Positions 33,402 to 33,711 of a stretch of 64,000 bases of DNA are shown piece after piece. The translations under genes and the position numbers were made by a program. Position 1 is the first letter of the stretch; each line of letters begins with the position of its first letter. Below the pieces are notes generated by a model. It saw only the letters and a program-made list of their open reading frames with translations. It searched no databases and had not been told where the DNA came from. The stretch is from Escherichia coli (GTDB lineage Bacteria > Pseudomonadota > Gammaproteobacteria > Enterobacterales > Enterobacteriaceae), in assembly GCF_041248615.1 (NCBI RefSeq), contig NZ_CP158426.1; one strand, 5' to 3'.

Positions 33402-33477
33402 GCCCTTTAGCTCAGTGGTGAGAGCGAGCGACTCATAATCGCCAGGTCGCTGGTTCAAATCCAGCAAGGGCCACCAG
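33402..33477 (+). tRNA. tRNA with CAT anticodon (Met or Ile2, ileZ-like)
   Basis: GGCCCTTTAGCTCAGTGGTGAGAGC...CTCATAATCGC...GGTTCAAATCCAGCAAGGGCCACCA. Confidence 0.8.
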
Positions 33478-33478
33478 C

Positions 33479-33555
33479 CGCCACTAGCTCATCAGGAAAG
33501 AGCGTCAACCCTTTAAGTTGAGTGTGCGAGGTTCGAGTCCCCGGTGGCGGTCCAG
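33479..33555 (+). tRNA. tRNA-like gene, anticodon ambiguous (loop CCTTTAA, nominal TTT)
   Basis: 7-bp acceptor stem CCGCCAC/GTGGCGG, D and T arms present, CCA end; atypical C at position 33; T-stem has one A-C mismatch. Confidence 0.5.
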
Positions 33556-33557
33556 TG

Positions 33558-33633
33558 CCGACTTAGCTCAGTAGGTAGAGCAACTGACTTGTAATCAGTA
33601 GGTCACCAGTTCGATTCCGGTAGTCGGCACCAT
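33558..33633 (+). tRNA. tRNA-Thr (anticodon TGT)
   Basis: GCCGACTTAGCTCAGTAGGTAGAGCAACTGACTTGTAATCAGTAGG...GGTAGTCGGCACCA. Confidence 0.8.
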
Positions 33634-33636
33634 ATG

Positions 33637-33711
33637 CGGGCATCGTATAATGGCTATTACCTCAGCCTTCCAAGCTGATGATGCGGGTTCGATTCCCGCT
33701 GCCCGCTCCAG
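33637..33711 (+). tRNA. tRNA-Gly (anticodon TCC)
   Basis: GCGGGCATCGTATAATGGCTATTACCTCAGCCTTCCAAGCTGATGATGCGGGTTCGATTCCCGCTGCCCGCTCCA. Confidence 0.85.

Follow-up and report, generated by a model that had tools for sequence, protein, structure and literature searches.

Why would a lambdoid prophage carry, in a cassette of otherwise ordinary tRNA genes, one that combines an arginine tRNA body with a lysine anticodon and has a cytidine in place of the nearly invariant U33? The question is raised by a 64,000-nucleotide stretch of an Escherichia coli chromosome (contig NZ_CP158426.1; hereafter the window), in which an array of four plus-strand tRNA genes (33401-33710) lies between the gene for the Q antiterminator and a holin gene. 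We take the second of the four, tRNA2, to be an anticodon-switched arginine tRNA with a lysine anticodon that is probably processed and charged by lysyl-tRNA synthetase (LysRS), decodes poorly, is dispensable and drifting, and is retained by its selected neighbours. This reading is tentative, with a probability of roughly 0.45. The four genes, as called by ARAGORN, by the Rfam model RF00005 (gathering threshold 29 bits) and in RefSeq, are the following.

33401-33476, plus strand: tRNA1, an ileZ-type tRNA-Ile2 with anticodon CAU (ARAGORN, Met/CAT; Rfam, 72.5 bits; RefSeq, tRNA-Ile)
33478-33554, plus strand: tRNA2 ("Lys*"), an argN-family body with anticodon UUU and C33 (ARAGORN, Lys/TTT; Rfam, 44.4 bits; RefSeq, tRNA-Lys)
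33557-33632, plus strand: tRNA3, tRNA-Thr(UGU), an exact copy of thrU (ARAGORN, Thr/TGT; Rfam, 73.8 bits; RefSeq, tRNA-Thr)
33636-33710, plus strand: tRNA4, tRNA-Gly(UCC), an exact copy of glyT (ARAGORN, Gly/TCC; Rfam, 64.9 bits; RefSeq, tRNA-Gly)

All four genes score above the Rfam threshold, and the spacers between them measure 1, 2 and 3 nucleotides, in agreement with the first-pass annotation, which had described four tightly packed tRNAs between the Q terminator and the lysis genes. The array is not the product of chance or of a sequencing artefact, as the identical 351-bp stretch, with coverage of at least 80% of the query, recurs in 599 complete E. coli genomes. That phages carry tRNA cassettes downstream of Q is well known, and this array is already annotated in hundreds of records. 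A literature search on ileZ, argN and argO returned nothing relevant, and no description of an Arg-to-Lys switch or of C33 in tRNA2 was found in the literature.

The sequence of tRNA2 is CCGCCAC TA GCTC ATCAGGAAA GAGC G TCAAC CCTTTAA GTTGA GTGTG CGAGG TTCGAGT CCCCG GTGGCGG T CCA. It contains a 7-bp acceptor stem, a 5-bp anticodon stem, an encoded CCA end and a 7-nucleotide anticodon loop, C32 C33 U34 U35 U36 A37 A38, with UUU as the anticodon. The cloverleaf, the CCA end, the loop CCTTTAA with C33 and the nominal TTT anticodon had all been recognized in the first-pass annotation; an A51.C63 mismatch in the T stem had been overlooked. Standard pairs are present at 20 of 21 positions, the exception being A51.C63, which is unpaired in argN as well. 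When evaluated directly, the energy of the cloverleaf is about the same as that of the minimum free energy (MFE) fold. Single-sequence MFE folding was discarded as a test of structure, as even the authentic host thrU misfolds. The window allele keeps U8, A14, G18G19 and the T-loop sequence TTCGA, and it further contains U73, A20 and C16. The canonical U33 is replaced by C33, both in the window allele and in every other of the Lys type.

The anticodon loop differs from that of host tRNA-Lys (CUUUUAA) at position 33 alone, so that 6 of 7 bases match. Resemblance to the body of host tRNA-Lys is limited to 47 identical columns of 79 aligned, roughly the universal tRNA positions. The discriminator base is U73, not the A73 of host tRNA-Lys, and is neither a Lys nor an Arg discriminator. 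U33 is near-invariant and is needed for the U-turn of the anticodon loop; known exceptions are some eukaryotic initiators (C33) and the identity-switched tRNA-Ser(CAG) of Candida (G33) (PMC11122139, PMC5041475). One could imagine that the loop CCUUUAA is used in a shifted register, in which U34 takes the role of the U-turn uridine and bases 35-37 (UUA) read UAA, making tRNA2 a natural ochre suppressor. The loop sequence allows this, but there is no precedent for it in a 7-nucleotide loop, and the phage genes have ordinary stops, such as the TAG plus frameshift of the tail-chaperone gene. ORFs suggestive of UAA read-through did not come to notice, although no search was aimed at them; we find the idea hardly credible.

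To place tRNA2 among its relatives, homologous prophage arrays were compared, as the first-pass annotation had proposed, and this revealed both the homology to argN and Arg(UCU) forms of the same gene. Together, tRNA1 and tRNA2 are ~91% identical to ileZ-argN of Stx2 phages. The ileZ-argN-argO cluster of 933W-type Stx and lambdoid phages occupies the same site, 3' of Q and its terminator and 5' of the late genes, and the promoter-like sequence upstream of it is identical. Against Stx argN, which has the anticodon UCG and the loop CTTCGAA, tRNA2 is identical at 65 of 77 positions. The two genes share A51.C63, U73 and the same T arm and acceptor, although the G.U pairs of the argN acceptor are Watson-Crick pairs in the window tRNA2. 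Slot 2 contains UUU and C33 here, compared with UCG and U33 there, and exact copies of host thrU and glyT take the place of argO. The composition thus departs from the Ile-Arg-Arg set, as had been remarked from the sequence, with UUU in slot 2 and Thr(UGU) and Gly(UCC) in slots 3 and 4.

The low Rfam score of tRNA2 is shared by the scaffold as a whole. The 44.4 bits of the window allele belong to this scaffold, as argN itself scores 43.0 bits; scores of 54-56 bits are seen in Arg(UCU) forms whose T stem is repaired. The Stx argN in question (Stx2a_F349; locus L002, 1599-1675; 43 bits) contains a G3.U70 pair next to A51.C63 and U73. This pair is kept in the Lys-type allele of the PPompW prophage (L003, 1599-1674) and is G3-C70 in the window allele. 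G3.U70 is the classic identity element of AlaRS.

A scan of IMG/VR with a pattern anchored on the flanking tRNAs, and hence without bias on tRNA2, returned 108 arrays. An earlier pattern sat inside tRNA2 and masked variation in the anticodon arm and T arm. In most of the IMG/VR arrays the loop is CCTTTAA, and the rare loop variants alter position 32 only (TCTTTAA and, in the earlier scan, ACTTTAA). At three loci the same body occurs in the same slot as a tRNA-Arg(UCU) with a canonical loop, for example CTTCTAA in L131 and TTTCTAA in L135. The L131-type gene is annotated as tRNA-Arg in RefSeq, and the L135 form is identical to tRNA2 at 70 of 77 positions, the remaining 7 being different. In other Escherichia species ileZ is followed by Arg(UCG), with or without Arg(UCU), and Arg is therefore the ancestral state of slot 2. 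The most parsimonious path would lead from UCG to UCU and then, by the two transitions U33C and C35U, to the loop of host tRNA-Lys (CTTTTAA) in every position except C33.

Intermediates on this path were searched for in several collections. A form of tRNA2 with U33 and UUU was not found in the IMG/VR loci (108-120). Among 5426 complete E. coli genomes there is no exact copy of the main body with U33 and UUU or with U33 and UCU, a search in which intermediates in variant bodies are not distinguishable. When metagenomes were scanned for the Lys-type arm with U33, two matches came up, both unrelated bacterial tRNA-Arg(UCU) genes; this negative is weak, as the Lys-type denominator is missing. Four loop combinations gave no match in a scan of one genome per species, and among species representatives the allele is confined to E. 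coli.

A second anticodon switch was observed in the same cassette. In some arrays the thrU-type gene of slot 3 carries G35U (together with A26G), which results in the canonical loop CUUUUAA, the anticodon UUU and a score of 74 bits. This thrU-body UUU gene is present in seven IMG/VR loci (such as L125 and L131) and in six complete E. coli genomes, where it is annotated as tRNA-Lys (for example L154, NZ_CP025842.1, 1040162-1040237). All four combinations of slot 2 (Arg-UCU or Lys*) with slot 3 (Thr or Lys) exist.

How tRNA2 is maintained can be judged from its distribution. The tRNA2 family is found in 797 complete E. coli genomes (~15%), and the exact window allele, annotated as tRNA-Lys, in 278; strain 165 (NZ_CP020509) is one carrier of it. 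Of 30 evenly spaced matches among the 797 genomes, only 14 are annotated as a tRNA. Nucleotide diversity (pi) was determined on a MAFFT alignment, using only pairs of loci with homologous flanks. For these pairs, pi is 0.0225 in tRNA2, compared with 0.019 and 0.012 in the non-coding flanks, a neutral rate such as a tRNA pseudogene shows. The other three genes are constrained, with values of 0.0006 (tRNA1), 0.0044 (tRNA3) and 0.0086 (tRNA4). Within the Lys-type clade, 24 of the 77 sites of tRNA2 are segregating and pi is 0.030, against 0.0016, 0.011 and 0.014 for tRNA1, tRNA3 and tRNA4, respectively; tRNA1 is in both sets the most conserved gene of the array (0.0006-0.0016).

Several alleles of tRNA2 are visibly damaged. 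A haplotype with C4U, U8C and C11U (the 96.1% haplotype), which has lost U8, occurs in ~20% of the IMG/VR loci. A 1-nucleotide deletion in the D stem is present in PPompW and Shiga toxin-producing E. coli prophages, a 7-nucleotide deletion in L130 and a scrambled loop in L142. None of these alleles reaches the Rfam threshold, and RefSeq does not annotate them as tRNAs. The window allele is the best preserved; it passes canonical tRNA calling and shows no loss of structure or score. At the level of the family the cloverleaf is kept, with 94.8% of cells paired and compensatory changes at two pairs, namely 4-69 (in L135) and 30-40 (between argN and the other sequences). In one further locus (L155, NZ_CP040067.1, 2333740-2335216), a heavily deleted prophage remnant with a truncated holin fused to a tail-tip fragment, annotation persists for the Ile, Thr and Gly tRNAs and skips the slot-2 gene, which belongs to the U8C haplotype and is left as a gap.

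Divergence like that of the flanks and several broken alleles are not the pattern of purifying selection on a functional tRNA, and the population data favour relaxed constraint on tRNA2. The first-pass annotation had left open whether this is a non-canonical tRNA or a decaying copy; the data lean to the latter and add that it is an argN homolog switched from Arg to Lys. A low-scoring pseudogene call, which would have spoken against a non-canonical tRNA, does not apply to the window allele, which RefSeq lists as tRNA-Lys without a pseudogene flag, but effectively applies to the sister alleles. Like the tRNA pseudogenes of decaying prophages, tRNA2 diverges as its flanks do, has several alleles that broke independently and has lost its annotation in about half of the genomes. 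Unlike them, the window allele has a full cloverleaf, a CCA end and a score above the threshold, and its changes produce an exact sense anticodon loop instead of random damage.

The neighbours of tRNA2 are more easily explained. Since tRNA1 aligns with ileZ of Stx phages without a single difference, the gene listed as tRNA(CAT) from the sequence is a tRNA-Ile2 of the lysidine type, whose CAU anticodon reads AUA after lysidine formation. In 5420 of 5426 complete genomes, chromosomal thrU and glyT match tRNA3 and tRNA4 at 100% identity; both are captured host genes rather than variants; in the host, tyrU lies between thrU and glyT, and it is absent from the array. The codon usage of the late genes, per 1000 codons, was compared with approximate E. 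coli averages (in brackets): ACA 13.8 (~7), GGA 13.5 (8), GGG 17.2 (11), AGA 6.5 (2), AGG 4.6 (1), AUA 6.2 (4) and AAA 33.4 (34). By this reference all seven codons except AAA are enriched. The host genes in the window were rejected as a reference because of their atypical usage (AUA makes up 0.20 of Ile codons). A role as codon supplement fits Thr, Gly, Ile2 and the lost Arg(UCU). It does not fit Lys, because AAA is not enriched and the host has a median of six tRNA-Lys genes per genome.

On the preferred reading, the array would be a late-region tRNA cassette of a lambdoid prophage with three ordinary supplements for codons favoured by the phage, namely Ile2 for AUA, the thrU copy for ACA and the glyT copy for GGA and GGG. 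Slot 2 would descend from a prophage Arg tRNA of the argN lineage, whose Arg(UCU) form took on U33C and C35U. The resulting tRNA2 may be transcribed and processed along with its neighbours. It is probably charged with lysine, as E. coli LysRS recognizes mainly the anticodon. Decoding would be weak, because C33 removes the uridine of the U-turn and prevents the t6A37 (N6-threonylcarbamoyladenosine) modification, which the E. coli TsaBCDE enzymes cannot place on a U33C tRNA (PMC8887486). Given a rate of change close to that of non-coding DNA and several broken lineages, tRNA2 is most plausibly a passenger that can be dispensed with and is slowly decaying, and we infer that it persists because it is wedged 1-2 nucleotides from genes that are still under selection.

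Changes of this kind have counterparts. Saks et al. reportedly showed in 1998 that E. coli tRNA-Arg(UCU) can be switched to Thr(UGU) through its anticodon ("tRNA gene recruitment"), and in tRNA2, likewise, a point change at position 35 has moved a tRNA body to another codon family. That tRNA and the Candida tRNA-Ser(CAG), which like tRNA2 lacks U33, have a demonstrated function, whereas tRNA2 is known from its sequence and resides in a host already rich in tRNA-Lys.

Several observations weigh against a mere passenger. The cloverleaf of the window tRNA2 is complete and holds its own in energy against the MFE fold, and the score of the gene equals that of argN. C33 and UUU are fixed throughout the Lys-type haplotypes, which span two array types and a variety of mosaic backgrounds; no U33 revertant was found in the 108-120 IMG/VR loci or the 5426 genomes. 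The Lys-type allele has displaced Arg(UCU) even though the late genes are rich in AGA and AGG. The second origin of UUU, in the thrU body, hints at selection for a phage-borne tRNA-Lys. In addition, the common changes in the stems of tRNA2 are C to U and keep G.U pairs, and the disruptive changes G24U, C31G, G52A and G66A are rare, so there may be some structural constraint on the gene. Selection on tRNA2 may also be conditional.

One way in which a weak decoder could be useful is in recoding. The tail-assembly-chaperone gene (45215-45601) ends in GTT A AAA AAG TAG, which contains a -1 slippery heptamer of the dnaX type (45592-45598), and the -1 frame (45598-45903) is open for 101 codons, as in a programmed frameshift of the G/GT type. 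Both slippery codons of A AAA AAG are read by tRNA-Lys(UUU), and a link between this frameshift and the Lys-type tRNA is possible on sequence grounds. tRNA2 might accordingly be an attenuated recoding tRNA of ambiguous identity, with an Arg body including A20, a Lys anticodon and U73. A20 is a determinant for ArgRS, and tRNA2 keeps it while lacking a Lys or Arg discriminator base. C33 would then dampen decoding as G33 does in Candida, or a UUU tRNA without t6A would tune the -1 frameshift; the Candida tRNA-Ser(CAG), with G33, was likewise switched in its anticodon in the absence of U33 (PMC5041475). However, a weak variant is expected to lose out to the host tRNA-Lys pool, with its median of six genes. 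Host tRNA alone suffices at A AAA AAG, a common slippery site, and the flank-like divergence speaks against a tuned function. We consider a recoding role improbable.

A stronger reason for carrying a lysine anticodon may lie in phage immunity. PrrC, RloC and PARIS have tRNA-Lys(UUU) as a common target, and phage tRNAs are being reinterpreted as counter-measures to tRNA-cutting immunity. Codon supply is no explanation for a Lys tRNA, since AAA does not count as rare. tRNA2 could instead be a nuclease-insensitive tRNA-Lys(UUU) in a non-host body, which evades PrrC, RloC and the AriB nuclease of PARIS and would keep lysine codons readable once the host tRNA-Lys is cleaved, or an uncleavable decoy. 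PrrC cuts tRNA-Lys 3' of U33, and RloC cuts at the same place (PMC2610378, PMC2275089). C33 of tRNA2 lies at the PrrC site, and it would both alter the nucleotide at the PrrC/RloC cut and block t6A37. PrrC is also said to need (c)t6A37 (PMC12409363), which we take with caution, as that paper misplaces the PrrC cut site.

The AriB site provides a more detailed comparison. AriB cuts between C40 and A41 in the sequence U36-A-A-U39-C40-A41; cleavage is lost with U39A and impaired with A41C or U16C (PMC12409363). Host tRNA-Lys has UAAUCA (U39, C40, A41) and U16, compared with U36-A-A-G39-U40-U41 and C16 in tRNA2, which thus differs from the host at all three of the tested positions relevant for AriB (39, 41 and 16), in an Arg-derived stem and D-loop without the AriB features. 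Phages are rescued by phage tRNA-Lys variants from PARIS (PMC12409363) and from PrrC170, against which the tRNA-Lys of SP15 acts (PMC11555353). [quoted passage not shown] The T5 tRNA has a canonical loop, experimentally shown resistance and a virulent phage as its carrier, in contrast to the Arg-derived body, C33 and flank-rate evolution of tRNA2. The two origins of UUU in the cassette, the fixation of C33 and the displacement of Arg(UCU) would also fit a counter-defence role.

Other data fit this role less well. The body of tRNA2 diverges at the rate of the flanks, and about half of its copies are degenerate. The features that would escape AriB are inherited from the Arg ancestor and did not evolve for the purpose. 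Being identical to the host gene, the Thr(UGU) copy is cleavable, and escape from PARIS generally needs a resistant Thr tRNA too; the AriB site is complete in the thrU-body tRNA that carries the other UUU anticodon. Another anticodon nuclease, gamma-toxin, is unaffected by U33C, and a tRNA that lacks t6A37 and the U-turn should decode AAA and AAG poorly. No anticodon nuclease or PARIS system was found in the ten open reading frames (ORFs) scanned, of which seven belong to the prophage and three lie past its right end. Weighing both sides, a nuclease-insensitive tRNA-Lys, the chief alternative to the preferred reading, is possible but doubtful. In its most elaborate form, a "disarmed" lysine tRNA would use a recruited Arg body, with C33 directed against t6A37 and PrrC/RloC and the foreign stem and D-loop against AriB, as a nuclease-proof decoder or decoy for lytic growth, and it might feed the A AAA AAG frameshift; this we think rather unlikely. 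A modest share of the probability is reserved for readings other than those discussed.

The only match related to defence in the ten ORFs is a FRG/PDC-S15 candidate. It is a 444-amino acid moron on the minus strand in the early-right region (27702-29036), with an FRG domain (Pfam PF08867, 80 bits) and a match to PADLOC PDC-S15 (E = 7e-99).

The prophage adjoins tRNA-Ser(CGA) (18923-19012) on the E. coli chromosome, and its HK97/P27-type late genes start at ~36.7 kb. The elements that frame the array are listed here.

19065-20090: integrase gene of the prophage
32511-33206, plus strand: gene for the late antiterminator Q, the upstream boundary of the cassette (ORF; "bacteriophage antitermination protein Q" in the identical RefSeq region)
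33270-33297, no strand assigned: G+C hairpin that has T-runs on each strand, a candidate for a tR'-type terminator following Q, AAAACCCGCCCACAAGCGGGTTTTTTGT
33363-33391, plus strand: candidate sigma-70-like promoter, TTGCAA-17-TATTAT, 10 nucleotides 5' of tRNA1 (consensus scan, 9 of 12 matches)
33917-33932 (33917-33940 including the T-run), plus strand: candidate terminator-like hairpin between the array and the holin gene (consensus scan)
34002-34217, plus strand: class II holin gene, the downstream boundary and start of the lysis cassette (ORF and RefSeq annotation of the identical region)

For the hairpin after Q, the terminator scan reports the minus strand, and direct reading of the plus strand shows a stem followed by a T6 run. 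The promoter-like element is identical in the aligned arrays of Stx2 phages and PPompW. The tRNAs may accordingly be expressed in lysogens independently of Q. As judged from this consensus match, the array resembles a small transcription unit inside the late operon. The holin gene is followed by a YdfR-family gene, lysozyme and Rz.

Further features were noted in the window. Directly 3' of tRNA4 there is a long inverted repeat without a T-run (33716-33768; GAGTCTTTCAGTC ... GACTGAAAGAC). A minus-strand ORF with a YfbU domain (36061-36600; Pfam PF03887, 44 bits) lies in the interval between the lysis genes and terminase and resembles a moron insert. Rfam identifies within the prophage a sok antitoxin RNA (29662-29836, plus strand, 111.7 bits), implying a hok/sok module, and the small RNA DicF (23438-23489, minus strand, 76.7 bits). 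A tRNA-Asn gene (17856-17931) is situated near tRNA-Ser(CGA), and zinT and msrPQ-like genes (within 60891-63438) lie beyond the right end of the prophage. The flanking host genes in the window show unusually high use of AUA, AGA and AGG, suggesting an island.

The widespread C33 allele is a natural experiment on the in vivo weight of U33 and t6A37, on the need of anticodon nucleases for U33 and on the change of identity by anticodon mutation. Should the counter-defence reading be true, the case would gain in interest, and among natural bacterial elongator tRNAs this one would be the first known to rely on a loop without U33 for immune evasion. As a mere relic it would remain relevant to annotation: RefSeq calls tRNA2 a plain tRNA-Lys in hundreds of genomes and does the same for the thrU-body variant; because both carry this label, tRNA gene counts and codon-supply models are inflated for these strains.

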